From Candidatus Saccharimonadota bacterium (GTDB lineage Bacteria; Patescibacteriota; Saccharimonadia; Saccharimonadales; Saccharimonadaceae), in assembly GCA_017515105.1 (NCBI GenBank), contig JAFWHO010000001.1, positions 202,903 to 266,902 of the forward strand: DNA of 64,000 nucleotides, written 5' to 3'. Below, in pieces: positions 5,004 to 59,644 of the stretch (the stretch's first letter is position 1; each line of letters begins with the position of its first letter). A model generated the notes under the pieces. It was not told where the DNA came from. It worked only from the letters and a program-made list of their open reading frames with translations, and ran no database searches. A program made the position numbers and the translations under genes.

Positions 5004-6191
5004 ATGAATAATAGTTCTAAAAAGATCAAATATGCAGCTCTTTGTTTTAATACAGAGAATATAGGAGACGAGATACAATCCCTTGCTGCTCAACGTTTCC
5101 TGCCACGAATAGACTATTATGTCGATCGCGACCATCTGGATGATCTTCCTCAAAAAAAGGATGAAGAGATAAAACTAATACTGAACAGCTGGTTCCTCAG
5201 CCCATCTCAAAAGGACGGATCAATTCATTGGCCGCCAAAATCCGCTCCCCTGAATCCTCTCCTTATTTCAATGCACACTAGTTTTCTTAATGGCTCAACA
5301 AAAACCTTTTCTTCTCCAACCAGCCGTTCTTTTCTTAACAAATTTGCCCCAGTGGGCGCCAGAGACCTAGCAACACAATCCTTCTTTCAATCAATTGGCG
5401 TCCCGTCGTTCTTTTCCGGCTGCCTAACACTAACGCTGCTCCCTGATCCATCAATAAAAAAACAAGATTATATATTAGCCGTCGACATCAGCGACACTTT
5501 ATTTTGTGAAATAAAAAAACGTACGAACCGCAGAATAATCCGATTAGATACGACGCACCCCCTAGATATTGACACTCAAACGCGTTTTAAATTGGCTAAA
5601 TATTGGCTTTACTTGTACCAATCTGCACATTGTGTTGTTTCATCAAGACTACACGCCATGCTACCATGCCTAAGCTTGAAAACCCCAGTCATTGGAGTCT
5701 CGGGACGCGATGTGGAGCGGTTTTCAGGACTGATAGACCTTGTCAACCATTACAGCGAAAAAGAAATATTACAAAATAAAAGAATAAGTTTTGATAACCC
5801 CCCTGATAATCCTAAAAGCTTTGAAAAAATTAGAAAAAAACTTATTGTAGAATGCAAGAAATATACAAACTACGATTCAAAACAATCGTTTTTATTAGGC
5901 ACCGATATTGTCGACCTCCTCTCAGACGAAGACTTAATTTCGCTTTTTACGAAATCGATAAACGATAACTATAGTTATGGGCTAGAGCTAAAAAATCAGC
6001 TTGAACAATATGAGCAGAACTACAAAAACTTCAGATTAGAAGTTGAAAAACATATCCAAAAAGAGCAAAACCTCGAGCAAGAACTAAAGGAATGTAAAAC
6101 TCTACTTGAAAACCCAGGAATAAAAACTTCCGTCAAAAACTTAAAGAAAGCCTTAAAGAATTACGCTAAAAAAATGACTTCCCGCAATTAA
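5004..6191 (+). CDS. polysaccharide pyruvyl transferase family protein with C-terminal coiled coil
   Basis: CFNTENIGDEIQSLAAQRFLP and SSRLHAMLPCLSLKTPVIGV resemble PS_pyruv_trans motifs. The tail is rich in E/K/Q heptads. Confidence 0.65.
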   Translation: MNNSSKKIKYAALCFNTENIGDEIQSLAAQRFLPRIDYYVDRDHLDDLPQKKDEEIKLILNSWFLSPSQKDGSIHWPPKSAPLNPLLISMHTSFLNGSTKTFSSPTSRSFLNKFAPVGARDLATQSFFQSIGVPSFFSGCLTLTLLPDPSIKKQDYILAVDISDTLFCEIKKRTNRRIIRLDTTHPLDIDTQTRFKLAKYWLYLYQSAHCVVSSRLHAMLPCLSLKTPVIGVSGRDVERFSGLIDLVNHYSEKEILQNKRISFDNPPDNPKSFEKIRKKLIVECKKYTNYDSKQSFLLGTDIVDLLSDEDLISLFTKSINDNYSYGLELKNQLEQYEQNYKNFRLEVEKHIQKEQNLEQELKECKTLLENPGIKTSVKNLKKALKNYAKKMTSRN

Positions 6192-7963
6192 AGCTCTTCG
6201 ATTGCGCTTGCAGGAATTGCCGCACAAATCCCACGCAAAGTATTGTGCTCTGTTCGATAATACCACTCCCCGTTTACAAAAGTTTTAGTTATAAATTTTA
6301 TTACCCTTCCTTTTTTCAAAACATCAATTATCTCCCCAGTAAATGGATTGATCCTTTCTGCATCCTCCTTCAAAACCATCTCCCTAGGATATACGAAATC
6401 CTCAAAAGATACTTCCACTAGATTATCCTCTCTAATAGCCGCTATGATATTATTTTTTGTGTTATGCTCCGTCCTATAATACTTCACCCCATCAATAATA
6501 ATATATGAGGAGAAATCATAAATCATGTTTTTACTAAGTGTGTCGTAATACTCATTATTTAAAGGGTTTATTCTGGCCGAGTCGAACTTTAGCGCCATGG
6601 TTTTTGAATTATAAGTATTGAAGAATTCCGGATTACTATAATCGTAGTCTTCCACGTCATCCGACAAAAACCCGTATTCTGAGTTCGAATTATAGTAATC
6701 GAACGCCGTAATATAATAAATGTGCCCATTAAAACTTGTCTTTACCATCATTTCTCTAGGCATCCTCTCTGTAAACGCATCTACCACCGTCTCTCCCCTT
6801 ATATATATTTTTTTTGCTCCAGGTTTTATTGTTTTTTCACGACCCCCTTCCTCGATCATAGTATAATCAAGGTTAACTTCTTCCAAATACTTTATAGGTA
6901 TGCACACATCTTCGTCATGTACTGTACCAAACTCTGTTCTCAAGCAAGAGCTACCGTCTCCATAAACAACCTTTGTCATAAACTTTAACATCCTACCACT
7001 TTCTATTGTATCCACACCCTTACCAGTTTTAGGATTGATTCTAGTCACAGACTCCTTCGTCACCATATATCTAGGAGAAATTAACGAAACGTATTGAACC
7101 CCATCACTCGTTATCCCACCGAACCAATCTTGAAAATACAAATAAAAGTTCCTATTCCCATACGCACCGCAATACGCCGTCCCATATCCAGCAGCAAGCG
7201 CACCTTCATTTGGCTGATATGGGGTGTATCTATACAGTGCAGACGTAGCTAGTGAACGAATATTGACCACCGACCCACCACATCCCGCATTTGGGTTATA
7301 TTGAATATAATTATTTCCCAATGGATAGTTTGTCCACCCGCCGTCCAAAACTGTCCTGAACAACGCAGCAGCTTTCCTTATTTGATTTTTGAAGCCATAA
7401 TATTGCGATGAACAGGGTGCCGTATCCGGACATCCATACCCAGTCGCCTTACGATAGTCACCATCGTTAGGGATTGGATCGGTTATGAGACCAGTTTCTT
7501 TCTGCAACAACACTAATAAAACCTGCGGATTAATTCTGTAGTCCTGCGCCGCCCGCCAAATAATATGTGCCGCCGTGTCACCTGAGCCAATCACCTCGCC
7601 GTCTCCAAACCTCTCCTCGGACAAGCACACAAAATGACCGTCGCTCCAATGCCACTTATACTTAGTATTTGCCGATAACCTTAAATAATAACCATAATCC
7701 GAGTTAGAACAAGAGTTTTTTCTGGTCAAAAAAGCCTGAATGTCAGATTCGCTCATTGAATTATAGTTCCCCATTTGATAATCTGAAATAATATATCCCG
7801 GATCGAATCCAGCCAAAGAAGCAGCTTCGACCTCATTGTTAGTGTTTGTTCTTTGAGCCAGAAAACTGAAAACGAACACTATTACAAACACCCCTAACGC
7901 TAAGTACCCAAACCTCTTACTTCGTCTTCCCACGGTTAGCCCTCCTTCTTGCACGTTTCTCAT
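6188..7963 (-). CDS. membrane-anchored secreted protein, putative cell-wall hydrolase domain plus four ~65-aa C-terminal repeats
   Basis: N-terminal TM segment (YLALGVFVIVFVFSFLA). AAQDYRINPQVLLVLLQKETGLI resembles lytic transglycosylase/muramidase motifs. Repeats of type RINPxTGxxxDxxxxGRxxKFxTK...YYRTEHNT occur four times. Confidence 0.55.
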   Translation of the reverse strand: MRNVQEGGLTVGRRSKRFGYLALGVFVIVFVFSFLAQRTNTNNEVEAASLAGFDPGYIISDYQMGNYNSMSESDIQAFLTRKNSCSNSDYGYYLRLSANTKYKWHWSDGHFVCLSEERFGDGEVIGSGDTAAHIIWRAAQDYRINPQVLLVLLQKETGLITDPIPNDGDYRKATGYGCPDTAPCSSQYYGFKNQIRKAAALFRTVLDGGWTNYPLGNNYIQYNPNAGCGGSVVNIRSLATSALYRYTPYQPNEGALAAGYGTAYCGAYGNRNFYLYFQDWFGGITSDGVQYVSLISPRYMVTKESVTRINPKTGKGVDTIESGRMLKFMTKVVYGDGSSCLRTEFGTVHDEDVCIPIKYLEEVNLDYTMIEEGGREKTIKPGAKKIYIRGETVVDAFTERMPREMMVKTSFNGHIYYITAFDYYNSNSEYGFLSDDVEDYDYSNPEFFNTYNSKTMALKFDSARINPLNNEYYDTLSKNMIYDFSSYIIIDGVKYYRTEHNTKNNIIAAIREDNLVEVSFEDFVYPREMVLKEDAERINPFTGEIIDVLKKGRVIKFITKTFVNGEWYYRTEHNTLRGICAAIPASAIEEL

Positions 7964-12366: not shown

Positions 12367-12452
12367 TATTAGAATAGGTATATAAAACAGCATAATAAGA
12401 TTTGGGTCAAGTAGATTAGTGATAGTATTTTGAGGCATTTTGGGATTGCCCG

Positions 12453-12531
12453 ATAAAAATTAAAGTAGCTACGGACGAGGAGTCGGTACTGAAATACCGA
12501 GACGAGTCCGCCTAGCTACTTTAATTTTTAT
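12453..12531. repeat. 79-bp palindromic element between convergent genes (also a likely bidirectional terminator)
   Basis: Perfect 19-bp arms ATAAAAATTAAAGTAGCTA (12453-12471) and TAGCTACTTTAATTTTTAT (12513-12531) flank a GC-rich, imperfectly palindromic core. Confidence 0.7.
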
Positions 12532-12576
12532 ACGGCGCAATTGCAAGCCAAAAAATAATATTACTAATCTACAAAA

Positions 12577-44244: not shown

Positions 44245-46989
44245 ATGAAATTTGCATCTAGTTACGAGCCTGGGGAGTACGAGTCGGATATTTATGCCGC
44301 TTGGGAATACGCAGGCATATTTAACCCAACCACACCCACTAAGCCAATCGATGACGACGGTGATGGCGTCGACGATCGCGAAGAAGGTAACAAAAAAAGA
44401 AACACTTATTCAATCGTCATGCCACCACCGAACGCCAACGGCAATCTTCATATTGGCCACGGCCTCACGGTAGCTCTCGAGGATTCCCTCACCCGCTACT
44501 ATCGCCTAAGAGGCGACTCTGCTTGGTACGTTCCTGGCGCCGACCACGCCGGTTTTGAAACCTGGGTTGTTTATGAGAAATTCCTCGAAAAACAGGGCCA
44601 CACTAGATTCGAATATGATCGCAACGAACTATATGCAAAAGTCTGGGACTTTGTCGCAGAGCAGCGCGGCAACATGGAGCTCCAGCTTCGCGCCCTTGGC
44701 GCTTCCTGTGCCTGGGACGACCTCACCTTTACGCTAGATGAAAATGTTATTGATCGCGTCTACACCACATTTGAAAAAATGTGGAACGACGGCCTAATCT
44801 ATCGCGGCGAGAAACTCGTTAACTACTGTCCAAAGCACCGCACCGCTTTCGCCGACATCGAGGTCACTCACAAAGATGAGCCAGGTACCCTCTGGGATAT
44901 CGAGTACAAATTGGCAGACGACCCCGAGAAAGCCTTGATCGTTTCTACCACTAGGCCAGAAACCCTCTTCGGCGATACTGCTGTAGCTATTAACCCTGAA
45001 GATAAACGCTACAAAGACCTAGTCGGCAAAAAAGTTAAACTACCACTTACCGATCGCACCATCCCGATTATTGCCGACGAGCACGCTGACCCCGAATATG
45101 GTACCGGCGTCGTCAAAATCACCCCAGCTCACGATTTCGATGACTTCGAAGTTGGCGAGCGCCATGATTTGGAGCGTATTCAGGTGATTTCTGAATCTGG
45201 CAAAATGATCAATGTCCCCGAGAAATACTACGATCTCACTACAAAAGAATGCCGCAAGCAGGTTCTAAAAGATCTCAAAGAACAGGGGCTCTTAAAAGAT
45301 GAACATAAAATCACTCACTCTGTCGCCCACTGTTATAAGTGCGACACCGTCTTGGAGCCAATGCTAAAAGAGCAATGGTTTGTTGATGTCGAGAAATTAG
45401 CTAAAGAGGCTATGAAACATATCGAGGCTGACGAAATCAAGTTCTTCCCTGAGAATAAGAAAAAAGTCCTCTTAAATTACTACAACAATTTGAGAGACTG
45501 GAACATTTCCCGCCAAATCCCTTGGGGTATCGCTATCCCGATGTTCAAAAAAGCCGACGAAGATGCCACCGACGAGCCAGATTGGATTTTCGATCGCCGC
45601 ACTAATCTAAAAGAAATTGAAAAAGGCGGCGTCAGATATGTTCGCGACGAGGACACTTTTGATACTTGGTTTTCATCAAGCCACTGGCCTATCATTTGTA
45701 CTAACTGGACCGAAGAAAACTACAACCCATATTATCCGCTAAATGTCATGGAAACCGGTGCTGACCTGCTCTTCTCTTGGGTTTCTCGTATGATTATGAT
45801 GGGTGTATATATCACCGGTGAAGTGCCATTCAGAGAGGTTTATATGCACGGCATGGTGCTTGATTCCAAGGGTCAAAAAATGAGCAAAAGCAAAGGCAAC
45901 GTTATCAACCCTATGGAGCTCGTCACCAAATATGGCTCCGACGCTTTCCGCCTTGGCATCATGCGTGGCCGCTCTGCTGGTATGAACCAGGCCTTTTCCG
46001 AAAATTCGGTAATTGCTGGTCGCAATCTCTGTAACAAGCTCTGGAATATTTCCCGCCTCATCCAAACATTCGTCGACGATGAGGATTCCGAGCTCAAGAA
46101 TGGCATCTCTCGAGGGCTTCCGGAGGTTACGACCGAGGATGAGGGCGTGAGCCCTGTGACGACAGGCGCGAACGACCCGTCCCGAGAAGATGCCATTCTT
46201 GGCTCGTTCTCTTATTCAACAGATAATATGGGTGAAGACTGGATCTGTCGCGAGATCAACGAATGCCTAGACCAGGTCGAATACGACATAAAAAACTATC
46301 GTTTCTCCGAAGCCGTCGACACTCTCTACCAAACCATCTGGGATAAATACGCCGACTGGTTCCTCGAATCCCAGAAAATCTTCAAAAACGTTGGGCTACT
46401 AAAAACCACGCTTTCTACGCTTTTGATAGCTCTTCACCCCTTTGCCCCGTTCGTCACTGAGACTATTTGGCAAAGCCTCAGCTGGACCGAAGGCTTCATC
46501 GCTACAGCTAAATGGCCCGCCAGACTTGAATATGACCCTATTTCAGCCGAGGAGTTTGAAAACATAAGGATTATCGTGTCTGAAGTGAGAGGCACCCTCA
46601 CGGCCCTTCCAGGTACCAATAACGCCAAAAAATATAAGCTATTATACGATAACGACAGCCTCGTAGAAGATAACCAGTTTCTTATCAAGACTCTCACCAG
46701 AGTTCCGGCCATCGATCCATTAGAAGGCTCCCCGCGTGGTCTCAGACTCGCTCTCGCGAATCACGAGCTCTATCTAGACGTCCCAGAGAAAGTCGTTAAG
46801 GAGTACAAGGATACCCTCACTGAACGCATCCTTAGTGTCGGCCGCGAGCTAGATGCCCTAAATCTCCGCATGGAAAATCCAAATTACGTCAATCGCGCCC
46901 CTGCCCACCTCGTCAAGGAGACACAGGATCAGATCAAAGAAAAAGAGGCCCTCATCTCTCGCCTCAAGACCGAACTCGAATTAATCTAA
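44245..46989 (+). CDS. valS: valine--tRNA ligase
   Basis: PPPNANGNLHIGH (HIGH), KMSKSKGN (KMSKS), an editing domain, and a C-terminal coiled coil. Confidence 0.95.
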   Translation: MKFASSYEPGEYESDIYAAWEYAGIFNPTTPTKPIDDDGDGVDDREEGNKKRNTYSIVMPPPNANGNLHIGHGLTVALEDSLTRYYRLRGDSAWYVPGADHAGFETWVVYEKFLEKQGHTRFEYDRNELYAKVWDFVAEQRGNMELQLRALGASCAWDDLTFTLDENVIDRVYTTFEKMWNDGLIYRGEKLVNYCPKHRTAFADIEVTHKDEPGTLWDIEYKLADDPEKALIVSTTRPETLFGDTAVAINPEDKRYKDLVGKKVKLPLTDRTIPIIADEHADPEYGTGVVKITPAHDFDDFEVGERHDLERIQVISESGKMINVPEKYYDLTTKECRKQVLKDLKEQGLLKDEHKITHSVAHCYKCDTVLEPMLKEQWFVDVEKLAKEAMKHIEADEIKFFPENKKKVLLNYYNNLRDWNISRQIPWGIAIPMFKKADEDATDEPDWIFDRRTNLKEIEKGGVRYVRDEDTFDTWFSSSHWPIICTNWTEENYNPYYPLNVMETGADLLFSWVSRMIMMGVYITGEVPFREVYMHGMVLDSKGQKMSKSKGNVINPMELVTKYGSDAFRLGIMRGRSAGMNQAFSENSVIAGRNLCNKLWNISRLIQTFVDDEDSELKNGISRGLPEVTTEDEGVSPVTTGANDPSREDAILGSFSYSTDNMGEDWICREINECLDQVEYDIKNYRFSEAVDTLYQTIWDKYADWFLESQKIFKNVGLLKTTLSTLLIALHPFAPFVTETIWQSLSWTEGFIATAKWPARLEYDPISAEEFENIRIIVSEVRGTLTALPGTNNAKKYKLLYDNDSLVEDNQFLIKTLTRVPAIDPLEGSPRGLRLALANHELYLDVPEKVVKEYKDTLTERILSVGRELDALNLRMENPNYVNRAPAHLVKETQDQIKEKEALISRLKTELELI
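46096..46200. repeat. 105-bp GC-rich palindromic element, in-frame inside valS
   Basis: Perfect 13-bp inverted arms at 46096-46108 and 46188-46200. The core shares TGAGCCCTGTGACGAC and GACAGGCGCGAA with the tsaD element. Confidence 0.75.
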
Positions 46990-49258: not shown

Positions 49259-49287
49259 TTGACACACACGTAAATAAATGCTACAAT
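49259..49287 (+). promoter_or_regulatory. strong sigma-70-type promoter
   Basis: TTGACA (49259-49264), 17 nt, TACAAT (49282-49287) with an upstream TGC. Confidence 0.65.
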
Positions 49288-49406
49288 AGTAAGCGTACTT
49301 TAAGAATTTGGGAGTGAAAATCAGCCCATGAAATAGCGAATAGCAACCTGTTCCCTGTTTTATGGGCTGATAAAGTGTCAGCCTCCAAAAAAAGGAGGAA
49401 AAAAAT

Positions 49407-49904
49407 ATGGATTTTTATGTTGTAGCATTTGTGTGGGTGATTGCTTTGCTTATCGGTATCTTAGTGGTATCTATAGTGGATGCCGTAAAGAGGCGAAAGG
49501 AAGCAAAAGAAGATGCGCCTAAGACTCTCGAAGAGATCCTCGAAGAGGAAAACGCCAAAAAGGCGTTTGTCTACGCCAAGTACTCAGAGGTTATAGACTG
49601 GCTGATAGCGTGTGAACAAAAGGGCAAGTTAGACCTTTCGCTGCTTTCAGAAGAGGCGATGACTAGGGGTGCGGCGCTCGCGGTCAAGACGGCAGAGGAT
49701 GAGTACACGTATGCGCTCATCGAATATGACCGGATCAACCGGGAGATTGCGAAAGCAACTAAGGGCATAGCGGGGCGTCCTGAGTCTAAAAGCAATAGGG
49801 AATTCTATGAAGACATTATAAAGACGCTAAAGAAGCAGAAAGTGGAGACGATTCACTGGATGCAGTCAGCCGAAGCCCTCTTAGAGGAGCTCAAAAAGAA
49901 TTAA
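49407..49904 (+). CDS. small membrane-anchored hypothetical protein
   Basis: ORF behind AGGAGG. N-terminal TM segment (FYVVAFVWVIALLIGILVVSIV). Hairpin terminator at 49918-49948. Confidence 0.6.
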   Translation: MDFYVVAFVWVIALLIGILVVSIVDAVKRRKEAKEDAPKTLEEILEEENAKKAFVYAKYSEVIDWLIACEQKGKLDLSLLSEEAMTRGAALAVKTAEDEYTYALIEYDRINREIAKATKGIAGRPESKSNREFYEDIIKTLKKQKVETIHWMQSAEALLEELKKN

Positions 49905-56634: not shown

Positions 56635-57663
56635 ATGGAACCAAATAACGTAGCCCCGACAGGGAGATCATCGGGTTCAGCCCCGCAAGATCAAGCAGCA
56701 CAAACCGAAGTTATAACTTCAAAACCAGATACGACAAGTAGTCAGCCCTCGCCAATAGACAAACCAACCAAATCTTCGAAGCCGCTAATCTGGATTCTAG
56801 CAATTCTAGCAGTGATCGCTATCGCTGCCGCTGGCGTATTCGCCTACCTATATTTTACTAAGCCAACCACCCCACCGTCTGAACCATCAGAGGAAACTAG
56901 TCAAGAGACTCCGCCAGAGGAAACAGCCGAAGAAACCGAAATCACAGACACCTACATTCTTCGTGATTTAGATGAAAAAATGGCAATTTTGCATAACACC
57001 GACGAGACGGGCCCCCTAATCAAAAAATTAGGAGTCGGTTATGGATATGTCTCACCTTTATATAAAAATGGAAATCTGAGCGAAATAGCAAAACTAGCAC
57101 ACATTTTTATGGCAACTGTTCCAGATTATATTTTGACTAGCCGTGAGATCGAGTCAGCTATTGCCGAGCAGGGATATGACAAAGACTCCGCCCAAGACTT
57201 TAGCACCACGGTTCATGATGGGATCAAAGGGGATACTATGGCTGCAAAGTATAAAGATCTTTTTGGAGAAGATCTAGTAAAGGGTGCCGCTAATGGTGAA
57301 TATTATTGCCCAGGGGCATACTACAATTCGCAGTATGATTTTTATTATAATCCAACGTTAGGGTGTGGTGGGACCGGACCATACTTTGGTGTTTATTATA
57401 AAAACAAGTACACGACTGACGGCGAGCATGCTTATGTCTATGTAAGCGCAGGAACATTTAACGCAGAAGATAATAAAACCTATTGCGATATTTTCGAGTA
57501 TGGAGTATCTGAACAAAGCAAACCAGCCGTCTGCGGAGAAGCTGAAAATCCGGACAGCTTCACTATAAACGAGAGTAATTATCAAAAATTCGCAGAGTAT
57601 CGCTTCGTCTTCAATAAGGCAGACGACGGTACCTACTACTTCGTCAAAGCAGAAAAGCTTTAA
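56635..57663 (+). CDS. membrane-anchored secreted hypothetical protein
   Basis: TACAAT promoter at 56598-56603 and an AAAGGAG RBS. TM segment LIWILAILAVIAIAAAGVFAYLYF followed by a P/E/T-rich linker. Confidence 0.6.
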   Translation: MEPNNVAPTGRSSGSAPQDQAAQTEVITSKPDTTSSQPSPIDKPTKSSKPLIWILAILAVIAIAAAGVFAYLYFTKPTTPPSEPSEETSQETPPEETAEETEITDTYILRDLDEKMAILHNTDETGPLIKKLGVGYGYVSPLYKNGNLSEIAKLAHIFMATVPDYILTSREIESAIAEQGYDKDSAQDFSTTVHDGIKGDTMAAKYKDLFGEDLVKGAANGEYYCPGAYYNSQYDFYYNPTLGCGGTGPYFGVYYKNKYTTDGEHAYVYVSAGTFNAEDNKTYCDIFEYGVSEQSKPAVCGEAENPDSFTINESNYQKFAEYRFVFNKADDGTYYFVKAEKL

Positions 57664-58826
57664 TTCTCGATCGATATCCTCGGATAAATATTGAGTTTAT
57701 ACGGATCCACCGGTTTCGCACCGGCTTGGATCTCGTAGTAACATGCCACCCCCACCATTGCACCATTATCACCAGATAGCGACGGGGCAGGGAAAAACGC
57801 CTCTGGCAACATCCCGCGCAGCACCTCATTGGCGCTCACGCCACCAGCCACCACCACCGATTTGGCATCAGGATATTTTTCAAGCGCCAAATCTAATTTT
57901 TCACAGAGAATCTCCATCGCAGTCTTCTGGAAAGAGGCCGCAAAATCCGCCACCTGCTGCTCATTAAGAAGCTCTTTTAATTTGTGTGACGGATAAGAAA
58001 TTGGCACACCCACCTCTTTCTGCACGGCGCGAAGCATCGCTGTTTTAAGCCCCGAAAACGAGAAATCAAGCCCCTCCACTTTCGGGTGTGGGAACTTATA
58101 CTTGTTTGCATCACCGCTTTTTGCAGCCTTAGCAATCGCCGGCCCGCCTGGATATGGTAAACCTAAAATCTTCGCCGCCTTATCAAAGCATTCTCCCACC
58201 GCATCATCCTTCGTGGTCCCAACAATCTCAAACTGATCATGTCCCTTCATGTACAGAATCTGCGTATGCCCCCCTGAAATCACCAACGCCAATATTGGGA
58301 AAAAAGGAAAACCAGAAATAGTACTTTCGAGACCGTGCGCGACCAACGGGGAGCGCTTTGAGCGACTGAGCCCTGTAACGACCGCCCCTTGGGACGCGGA
58401 CGACCTCTGGTCGACAGGCGCGAAGGAGCAAGTCGAGAAAGTACTATTTTGGTTTTCCATTTTTAGCCAATTTGCATACACATGTGATTTCAGGTGGTGC
58501 ACCGCATATAGCGGTTTATCGTGGAGCACGGCAAGCGTCCTCGCCGTCAGCGTCCCAATCAGAAGCGACCCAAGAAGCCCCGGCGCATGCGTCACCGCAA
58601 TCGCGTCAATATCATCCCAGGTACAAGAAGCATCACTAAGCGCCTTATCAATCACCGGTAGCATCACTTCAAGGTGCGATCTTGCCGCCACCTCTGGTAT
58701 TACGCCCCCATATTCAGCAAAAATATCAATCTGGCTCACTACCACATTGGACAAAATCTTAGCGCCGTCTTCAACCACGGCCGCCGCAGTTTCATCGCAG
58801 CTCGTCTCTATGCCGAGTATTTTCAT
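57660..58826 (-). CDS. tsaD: tRNA N6-adenosine threonylcarbamoyltransferase TsaD, carrying a ~45-aa insertion
   Basis: Start set at MKILGIETSCDETAAAVV (58826). Motifs include VISGGHTQ and GGVSAN. Confidence 0.9.
   Translation of the reverse strand: MKILGIETSCDETAAAVVEDGAKILSNVVVSQIDIFAEYGGVIPEVAARSHLEVMLPVIDKALSDASCTWDDIDAIAVTHAPGLLGSLLIGTLTARTLAVLHDKPLYAVHHLKSHVYANWLKMENQNSTFSTCSFAPVDQRSSASQGAVVTGLSRSKRSPLVAHGLESTISGFPFFPILALVISGGHTQILYMKGHDQFEIVGTTKDDAVGECFDKAAKILGLPYPGGPAIAKAAKSGDANKYKFPHPKVEGLDFSFSGLKTAMLRAVQKEVGVPISYPSHKLKELLNEQQVADFAASFQKTAMEILCEKLDLALEKYPDAKSVVVAGGVSANEVLRGMLPEAFFPAPSLSGDNGAMVGVACYYEIQAGAKPVDPYKLNIYPRISIEN
58316..58449. repeat. 134-bp GC-rich palindromic element inside tsaD
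   Basis: Perfect 12-bp arms AAATAGTACTTT (58316-58327) and AAAGTACTATTT (58438-58449). The core carries TGAGCCCTGTAACGAC and GACAGGCGCGAA. Confidence 0.75.
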
Positions 58827-59415: not shown

Positions 59416-59569
59416 TGGCTGGACCGGCAGGATTCGCACCGTTAGGTCCGAATCCCAACTAAAAAAGCCTCTCTGGAGGCAATGAACTTGATTGGCTGGA
59501 CCGGCAGGATTCGCACCGTTAGGTCCGAATCCCAACCAAAAAAGCCTCTCTGGAGGCGATATACTTGAT
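59416..59569. repeat. two tandem 77-bp units, each starting with a tRNA-Gln 3'-end copy and containing a terminator hairpin
   Basis: Units at 59416-59492 and 59493-59569 differ at 4 of 77 positions by my count. Both begin TGGCTGGACCGGCAGGATTCG, as does the tRNA 3' end at 59570. Confidence 0.85.
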
Positions 59570-59644
59570 TGGCTGGACCGGCAGGATTCGAACCTGCGAA
59601 TGCTGGGACCAAAACCCAGTGCCTTACCACTTGGCGACGGTCCA
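59570..59644 (-). tRNA. tRNA-Gln (anticodon TTG), CCA encoded
   Basis: The reverse complement TGGACCGTCGCCAAGTGGTAAGGCACTGGGTTTTGGTCCCAGCATTCGCAGGTTCGAATCCTGCCGGTCCAGCCA closely parallels E. coli tRNA-Gln (U1-A72, discriminator G). Confidence 0.9.

Follow-up and report, generated by a model that had tools for sequence, protein, structure and literature searches.

The tsaD gene within a 64,000-nt stretch of a Candidatus Saccharimonadota genome (contig JAFWHO010000001.1; this whole stretch is hereafter the window) contains a palindrome of about 165 nt that is read through in frame and encodes residues ~122-173 of TsaD, a segment missing in the Escherichia coli protein and in relatives of 340-341 amino acids. 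What kind of sequence is this palindrome, how does its host gene accommodate it, and how have its arms remained complementary? A first-pass annotation of the window had pointed to a related segment in valS, which lies in the same window, and had offered two options for the paired arms, namely inverted duplication of target sequence upon insertion, or selection on a hairpin. Comparison with DNA from other genomes shows that both segments belong to a family of palindromes with a covarying fold, which reside in frame within many unrelated genes. We consider it likely that they are selfish, non-autonomous, hairpin-forming coding palindromes in tolerant loops of essential proteins, resembling the Rickettsia palindromic elements (RPEs) and constituting a new family.

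A family of palindromes with a common fold

The arms of the tsaD palindrome contain 12-mers that, as first reported, are exact reverse complements (AAATAGTACTTT and AAAGTACTATTT; Table 1). Between them lie the motifs TGAGCCCTGTAACGAC (58367-58382) and GACAGGCGCGAA (58413-58424), which recur on the same strand in valS as TGAGCCCTGTGACGAC (46148-46163) and GACAGGCGCGAA (46161-46172), and between AVHHLKSHVYANWL and ALVISGGHTQ the minus-strand reading (...NSTFSTCSFAPVDQRSSASQGAVVTGLSRSKRSPLVAHGLESTIS...) does stay open and keeps the frame. The two motifs in common carry little weight when taken alone, being near chance level (BLAST E of 0.1-0.5); the homology of the two segments is established by the family to which they belong. 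An exact 21-mer from the hairpin tip, GCCCYGTRACGACRGGCGCGA, was scanned across one genome per species, and this genome-wide scan, which the first-pass annotation had proposed, recovered at least 119 stretches, nearly all from metagenome-assembled genomes (MAGs) of Candidatus Saccharibacteria or Ca. Nanosyncoccus. These loci come from ruminant and human gut MAGs, often with several copies per genome among the matches listed, and the family statistics given below (copies, frames, hosts and folds) rest on these stretches among the listed 21-mer matches. A core profile seeded with 89 copies, 88 from other genomes and the valS copy, matches the window in two places only, namely valS 46113-46183 (E = 1.7e-12, a match that is thus partly by construction) and tsaD 58330-58382 (E = 8e-5), with the latter match ending where an extra 33 nt start. 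Against 1.16 Mb the same profile gave 156 matches. The tsaD and valS segments are thus homologous copies in the same chromosomal orientation that are read from opposite strands, as had been suggested.

One could take the tsaD segment for a normal protein loop under rapid evolution, or for a palindrome that arose, and shares its motifs, by chance, citing the variability of this loop in TsaD and the near-chance score of the two motifs; this view is refuted by the profile E-values, the 119 or more loci with the tip 21-mer, the covariation of the stems and the use of five frames in both orientations, and we give it essentially no credence. Two Firmicutes-labelled loci on short contigs, L036 and L110, are probably mis-binned, since they carry full elements orthologous to Saccharibacteria loci. 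A match in a Thermomicrobiales genome of 64% GC (L063) was rejected as a chance match, since the similarity there is limited to profile positions 40-65, i.e. the 21-mer with a few bases on its flanks, and does not extend over the whole core. Searches with the encoded peptide were poor guides to host range because the peptides are too short and because representatives clustered at 50% identity conceal inserts: a 45-residue insert query matched 2 proteins, and a library of 1.84 billion representatives yielded 4, of which one (P0123) is an unrelated eukaryote-like repeat protein. Scanning the window with Rfam at gathering scores gave tRNAs only, and E-value scans of both elements gave only chance-level hairpin (miRNA-precursor) matches with E >0.3. 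A full-text literature search found no account of such elements in Saccharibacteria or Patescibacteria. The family, its phylum and its architecture appear to be undescribed; translated palindromic repeats as a phenomenon are already known.

The elements span 114 nt in the median. Their AT-rich outer stem, which has a median of 23 bp and a sequence that is essentially free across the family and complementary within each copy, leads through a junction of C-GA-G opposite C-GA-G into a GC-rich, Y-shaped core of 63-75 nt. The core comprises a left and a right hairpin, each capped by an RACG loop and bearing tandem G.A mismatches; the left one differs by subtype (stem-GA-C-RACG-G-GA-stem, GGTTACGACC, or CCGACGKGG with an A/T stem) and the right one reads GC-GA-GC-GA-GCCCCGT-RACG-ACGGGC-GC-GA-GC. 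All 119 copies tested fold alike, as an enclosing stem with a two-hairpin core. In an alignment of 23 copies of a single subtype, which is gapless and hence not fitted to any structure, 89.8% of the cells are paired, as against 72.2% after shuffling (a value as high as the observed one came up in 0 of 500 shuffles) and 33-43% after sliding the partners, and the covariation score is 0.482 against 0.153. Of the 17 outer-stem pairs, 16 have double changes in these 23 copies, a single position showing as many as six types of pair, and arm complementarity scores 31 within the same copy and 10 between different copies. The covariation is strong and supports the fold. A mixed-subtype alignment made with MAFFT and RNAalifold recovered the tip hairpin alone, and was superseded by the gapless one.

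The valS copy is intact, with a predicted fold of -75.9 kcal/mol, a 14-nt perfect inverted repeat in its arms (46095-46108 with 46188-46201), the tip CCTGT-GACG-ACAGG at 46153-46166 and the exact family 21-mer at 46151-46171. Its core is nearly identical to that of an intergenic copy (L011) whose arms differ. In its match to Thermus thermophilus ValRS (E = 6e-157) the valS product has some 40 residues more, placed between query positions 608 and 687, and across genomes valS has at least three distinct insertion sites.

In the tsaD copy, RNAfold predicts a single long enclosing stem (-78.9 kcal/mol), and the full inverted repeat extends over 58294-58333 with 58432-58471 (40 nt, 78%). The first-pass annotation had described the valS copy as the tsaD copy minus a 33-nt segment; the difference is real, but the valS copy lost nothing. 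The tsaD copies of the relatives L003, L004 and L005 lack the 33 nt, as does the valS copy, so the segment is a secondary insertion in tsaD and not a deletion from valS. It is kept in the 99% identical P0001, and its first 16 nt, CGCCCCTTGGGACGCG, reappear in L121 and L055, again inside elements. Once the 33 nt are taken out, the tsaD core folds into the Y shape of the family; the window copy is thus slightly damaged in structure, its tip being split by the insertion. Separately, positions 58270-58283 can pair with 58484-58497 at 13 of 14 bases, in a nearly symmetric placement around the middle of the element, within the conserved VISGG and HLKSH codons flanking it. This pair is seen only in the clade that has Ile for Val (the window, L001 and L003); it may have arisen by chance or by templated mutation that extended the palindrome outward, and its membership of the element is uncertain.

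Table 1. Host genes and element parts in the window. E+ is the strand on which the hairpin tip reads GCCCYGTRACGAC.
Feature	Position	Strand	Basis or remarks
valS, host of the second copy	44245-46989	+	914 amino acids; PDB match to T. thermophilus ValRS
Intact second element, in valS	46088-46208	E+ = window +, sense to valS	inverted repeat, fold, 21-mer, nhmmer
tsaD, host gene	57660-58826	-	388 amino acids counted from MKILGIETS; open reading frame and PDB TsaD matches
Whole palindromic element in tsaD, ~165 nt	58300-58464	E+ = window +, antisense to tsaD	inverted repeats, RNAfold
Left (5') outer arm, tsaD	58300-58327	+	pairs with 58438-58464, one bulge; contains 12-mer AAATAGTACTTT (58316-58327)
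Right (3') outer arm, tsaD	58438-58464	+	contains 12-mer AAAGTACTATTT (58438-58449)
GC-rich core, tsaD	58328-58437	+	nhmmer family-profile match 58330-58382
Core part: CGAG junction			
Core part: left sub-hairpin GCGCGACCAACGGGGAGCGC	58337-58356		
Core part: tip, 5' half	58367-58382		
Core part: 33-nt (11-codon) secondary insertion, CGCCCCTTGGGACGCGGACGACCTCTGGTCGAC	58383-58415	+	splits the tip hairpin
Core part: tip, 3' half	58416-58424		
Core part: closing GTCGAG			

Reading frames and host proteins

Counting a copy as genic if it lies inside an open reading frame (ORF) that stays open for at least 450 nt, 118 of 129 copies (~90%) are genic, and a few copies are intergenic. In the sense orientation, 55 copies use frame 2 and 30 use frame 1; frame 0, in which the tip cannot be read without a TAA or TGA, is used by 0 of 85. 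The antisense frames are used by 14, 13 and 7 copies. Because five of the six frames are in use and orthologues are read differently, it is the nucleic acid that is conserved and not the peptide; indeed, the peptides are wholly unlike between copies (e.g. EPRNDGRE, SPVTTGA, LAPVVTGL, SRPSLRGS and ARRHGA). The use of five frames and never of the one with the stop is what would be expected if copies survive only where they keep the frame and no stop is read.

The 115 host ORFs fall into at least 46 clusters among the copies listed. They include IleRS/ValRS, ArgRS, LeuRS, Obg, a P-type ATPase, MnmA, GatA, TrmD, MiaA, Dus, PolA, TruB, LepA, FemAB, TatD, UvrD, UvrC, TsaD and FtsJ. Copies would appear to occupy tolerant surface loops of essential housekeeping proteins, in which they are read through.

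TsaD illustrates this. The window protein (Pfam PF00814; 8000 homologues) matches PDB structures of TsaD at E = 3e-69, and the match is split in two around residues 122-173; as the first-pass annotation had stated for E. coli, the enzymes of E. coli and Salmonella have 4 residues in place of the ~52 found here. In an AlphaFold model, proposed as a check at the outset, the insert (residues 125-171) has a pLDDT of 23-39, below 50 throughout, and no secondary structure, and the rest of the protein mostly scores 82-97, with a second low stretch at residues 40-46; the insert is thus predicted to be a disordered loop. The encoded 35-50 residues forming a disordered, mostly hydrophilic loop, the host protein would still work. 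TsaD proteins of relatives (70-99% identical) range from 340 to 436 amino acids, with all length variation confined to the insert site: some lack an insert, many have inserts of the NQNSTFSTR..PVVTG..LVAxGLESxISD type, and others have the same DNA in another frame, so that orthologous copies read APVVTG in one case and GPSLRA in another. The DNA of five tsaD orthologues shares the hairpin tip CCYGT-RACG-ACRGG, which turned up again in an ftsJ-like gene and in the valS of a further genome.

The long stem juxtaposes the sequences flanking the insert, as in bulge-helix-bulge or group I/II intron contexts, and one could accordingly imagine that the element is excised at the level of RNA or protein, like an intron or intein, to leave a mature protein without the insert. 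An excised element would escape the constraints of both frame and stop codons; the 118 of 129 copies that keep the frame stop-free, and the shunned TAA/TGA frame, therefore speak against excision. Furthermore, the inserts have no intein motifs, are too short for inteins and match no Rfam intron family. We regard this explanation as highly improbable.

Turnover of arms and cores

The outer arms had been taken to be 12-13 bp long, perfect within each copy and unrelated between copies. The 12-mers in tsaD do pair perfectly, but the inverted repeats are longer than this, and the arms share a weak consensus, approximately CCAGAAATAGTGCTTTCGAG, of the form GAAA-(variable)-CTTTY before the core with the complement RAAAG..TTTC after it. 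About half of the arms fit the 20-nt consensus above the 95th percentile of shuffled arms. The tsaD arm matches it at 19 of 20 positions, partly by circularity since the consensus was drawn by eye in part from tsaD-type arms, and the valS arm at 12 of 20. Mismatches to the consensus comprise 170 transitions and 204 transversions, against 574 and 1114 for shuffled arms, an excess of transitions that is expected if stems evolve via G.T or G.U intermediates. Across copies, the arms hold 0-1.1 bit of information per position, and nil at the outer ends. In addition to the weak consensus, tsaD-like arms occur at unrelated loci, namely IleRS, PolA and intergenic loci in other genomes. Of the two options first put forward, that of arms kept paired is borne out by the double changes in the outer stem and by paired changes between orthologues, such as AGTACT/AGTACT in the window tsaD against AGTGCT/AGCACT in L004, or GCGGATTCAGG/CCTGAATCCGC against GCAAATTCAGA/TCTGAATTTGC in IleRS. 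The arms are diverged descendants of a common ancestral arm, kept paired by compensatory change. We envisage that they drift freely and that pairing could be restored by selection on the folded single strand or by templated correction from arm to arm.

The loci from the listed matches include 190 orthologue pairs in which the site is filled in just one of the two genomes, the other being empty. In most of these pairs the net insert is 100-111 nt, i.e. about the whole palindrome minus 12-15 nt. These pairs bear on the other option, under which the core alone inserts and a flank is copied in inverted form, so that one arm is the original host sequence. Certain cases do look this way: comparing L054 with the empty L119, the host codons CGAAC (left) and ATATTAGT (right) lie inside the palindrome and some six inserted bases (TAATAT) pair with the host ATATTA; comparing L003 with L001, about eight of the outermost nucleotides of one arm are host sequence, already there in the allele without the insert, and their complement lies within the inserted DNA; two copies in one genome, L107 and L114, have identical cores with unrelated arms; and the 13/14 inverted repeat falls in the conserved tsaD codons flanking the element. 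However, only in the first two of these cases is there host sequence in an arm, limited to the outermost 6-8 bases of one arm, and the net insert lengths lean against a host-derived arm, as they amount to nearly the whole palindrome and not to a core plus one arm. The arm consensus and the tsaD-like arms at unrelated loci point the same way, as do orthologous sites with conserved flanks that bear different arms, and "empty" alleles may be remnants of deletion, given that L001 retains half of an L006-type element. With no target-site duplication (TSD) either, inverted duplication of the target fails as a general rule, and we think it very unlikely as the origin of the arms. Palindromes may nevertheless grow slightly outward by templated correction, as a side effect.

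The tsaD site itself has a history of such events. The 348-residue "short" TsaD of L001 (10001-11047) retains only the 3' half of an L006-type element (..TTCGGATTCCCTCGAGTCGGGTATGATTAAT..), and precisely at the junction of this half element L003 bears a full element of a different subtype, which shows serial deletion and gain at a single site. In the tsaD orthologue of L008 (10001-11203), the same loop holds a different and longer hairpin insert of ~60 residues with a CCGCCCCTTCGGGGCG tip; as this is another type of element, the TsaD loop is a recurrent site of landing or retention. Elsewhere, a single Nanosyncoccus contig (L104) has three copies within 3 kb (5185-5257, 6017-6089 and 7918-7938), two of which, in opposite orientation, have cores that are 97% and arms that are 92% identical; this pair may be a recent duplication or flip.

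At orthologous sites of species representatives, where flank identity is ~75%, arms are at background similarity (0.59-0.62 vs 0.55), and cores are no more alike than random pairs (0.76 vs 0.74). Homogenization of cores within genomes is marginal (0.77 vs 0.74), with individual identical pairs, such as that of L107 and L114. Among non-orthologous copies, 76 pairs have cores at least 95% identical, many of them 100% over 70-75 nt. In 14 of 86 orthologous-site pairs the core is flipped, which recombination between the arms of the palindrome would produce. We suggest, as a working guess, that cores stay similar through a copying or recombining machinery that recognizes E+ folded as a single strand; swaps of cores among resident copies, and inversion of the core inside its palindrome, would contribute. 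A bolder version is conceivable, though we find it rather doubtful: the 63-75-nt Y core would itself be the mobile unit of a new class of bacterial element, with an enzyme copying, swapping or flipping cores between hairpins. Under this proposal, which we put forward only tentatively, the folded E+ strand would be recognized in a homing- or conversion-like process and the long variable stem would serve as a structural socket only. Such an element, possible but to our mind more doubtful than not, would have no terminal repeats and cause no target duplication, and would be found almost only in essential genes of ultra-small bacteria of the candidate phyla radiation (CPR).

Several observations weigh against the view of these palindromes as selfish elements. 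Sense copies outnumber antisense ones by 85 to 33, i.e. 72% are sense, though the sense strand has fewer open frames, and in 112 of the 119 cores E+ has a more stable fold than E-; sense bias and E+ stability would also fit a role at the level of RNA. Judging by their open frames, the inserts are evidently translated. No transposase was found in the genome pieces of 8-21 kb, with no systematic transposase census made. Termini or a terminal tetranucleotide shared by the copies were looked for and not found, nor was a TSD, the lengths of flanking direct repeats being about those of shuffled flanks with a slight excess at 2-3 nt. In the absence of transposase, TSD and conserved terminus, the case for mobility comes only from copy number, identical cores at unrelated loci and presence or absence at orthologous sites. 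Finally, cores that are 100% identical between unrelated loci and species, with arms at background level, would require strong purifying selection on discrete core types, a hint of function, or else a copying of cores alone between resident hairpins.

A rival reading is a functional cis-acting motif, with the Y core serving in mRNA or single-stranded DNA as a binding or processing site, for instance for an RNase III-type enzyme or another structure-specific protein; it would adjust how strongly genes of translation, tRNA modification and repair are expressed, with the peptide as a tolerated by-product. Core identities that reach 100% between species already saturated at neutral sites would fit such a motif, as would the sense excess, the greater stability of E+ and its richness in GA motifs, an excess of wobble (G.U-type) mismatches favouring E+ by 79 to 49, and hosts weighted heavily to translation-related genes. 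On the other hand, ~28% of the copies within genes lie antisense, some copies fall between genes, and in antisense copies the wobble bias still follows E+, by 39 to 16, and not the mRNA strand. Orthologous sites are filled or empty by species, share core subtypes no more than the 0.76 vs 0.74 above, and show the 14 flips among 86 pairs; the tip-disrupted tsaD copy has been retained; GA-richness can equally result from selection for hydrophilic codons; and survivorship in essential genes can account for the host bias. A functional motif is thus unlikely in our assessment, and selfish coding palindromes remain our preferred explanation. The strand asymmetries point to a single-stranded E+ form. 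The orientation bias tracks the host gene and not the neighbouring genes; the idea that E+ is fixed to one strand of replication, prompted by the plus-strand position of both window copies, was rejected, because the neighbours of antisense copies are co-oriented with the host gene and not with E+.

Known systems and wider meaning

The window holds other repeats. A nested hairpin of 160 nt between convergent ORFs (12411-12572) has a different GC-rich core (ACGGACGAGGAGTCGGTACTGAAATACCGAGACGAGTCCGC) and represents a second repeat family; its homologues have copy-specific arms, and lie inside long ORFs in L069 and L086, with the one in L082 being spanned by an open frame of 228 nt only and thus probably intergenic. 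Nested inverted repeats at 49267-49439, upstream of the ORF at 49407-49904, are syntenic in L001, L002, L005 and L006 (75-94% identity) and match no Rfam family at gathering score; they are probably a conserved structured leader. Following tRNA-Gln (59570-59644, minus strand), the region 59416-59644 has two tandem units of 77 nt (95% identical), each of which begins with a 25-nt copy of the tRNA 3' end; the arrangement resembles attachment-site remnants that an integrative element would leave in series.

Hairpin cassettes rich in GC, set in DNA of higher AT content, are also represented by the optional GC clusters of yeast var1 and the double-hairpin elements of Allomyces, which are sometimes in frame, in some cases consist of two hairpins, and spread in a conversion-like manner without a transposase of their own. 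These are organellar, shorter and devoid of a long variable outer stem, and homology is not expected.

The closest parallels are the RPEs (RPE-1 to RPE-10; Ogata et al. 2000, 2002; summarized in PMC10969869). Both are palindromic repeats of ~100-150 bp with many copies in reduced genomes (here several per MAG, and two in 64 kb), both lie in frame within many unrelated housekeeping genes, truB being a host in both, and both have no known associated transposase and can be read as selfish DNA that makes tolerated surface additions. The first-pass annotation had called either of its options mechanistically unusual; RPEs are a precedent for the phenomenon, while a conserved core combined with free arms, no conserved termini and no TSD is still unusual. 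RPEs belong to another phylum, which makes homology unlikely. In RPEs, close to half of the copies are genic and every family specifies one conserved peptide (PMC10969869), whereas the Saccharibacteria element is ~90% genic, is read in five frames, conserves no peptide and has as its conserved part the internal Y-shaped core, with variable arms.

REP (repetitive extragenic palindromic) sequences are simple stem-loops of 20-40 bp with a conserved terminal tetranucleotide (GTAG or CGTC) and a tail; those of the CGTC type, a class that includes RPE-4 and RPE-6, have no dedicated transposase (PMC3733652). They too are hairpin repeats able to sit inside genes, many of replication and repair, and probably act as single-stranded hairpins (PMC3733652). 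The present element differs in having ~115 nt, three helices and no conserved terminus, and CGTY occurs here only in loops of the complementary strand. With no conserved peptide, no conserved ends and no TSD, and with a size and fold unlike those of REPs, the element belongs to neither the RPE nor the REP families. [quoted passage not shown] In mitochondria of Nematomorpha (PMC6649704), essential genes also contain long inverted repeats that are transcribed and translated; in that case conserved parts of the host protein are encoded by both arms and there is no family of repeated cores, whereas here the whole palindrome is an insertion, the arms being missing from insert-free orthologues and from E. 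coli TsaD.

The family thus represents a second, independent system of translated palindromes, more extreme than the first in being ~90% genic and read in five frames. It is found in another reduced-genome, host-dependent lineage, the CPR, with aminoacyl-tRNA synthetases and enzymes of tRNA modification and DNA repair as hosts. It explains "CPR-specific insertions" of 35-50 residues and length variation in conserved proteins, and such inserts upset orthologue alignments, phylogenomic markers and structure prediction. The copies provide a strain-level marker for gut Saccharibacteria and, as dozens of natural insertion experiments, a map of tolerant loops in essential enzymes. A conserved structured core with free arms, no TSD and no known enzyme points to an uncharacterized mechanism of copying in these bacteria.

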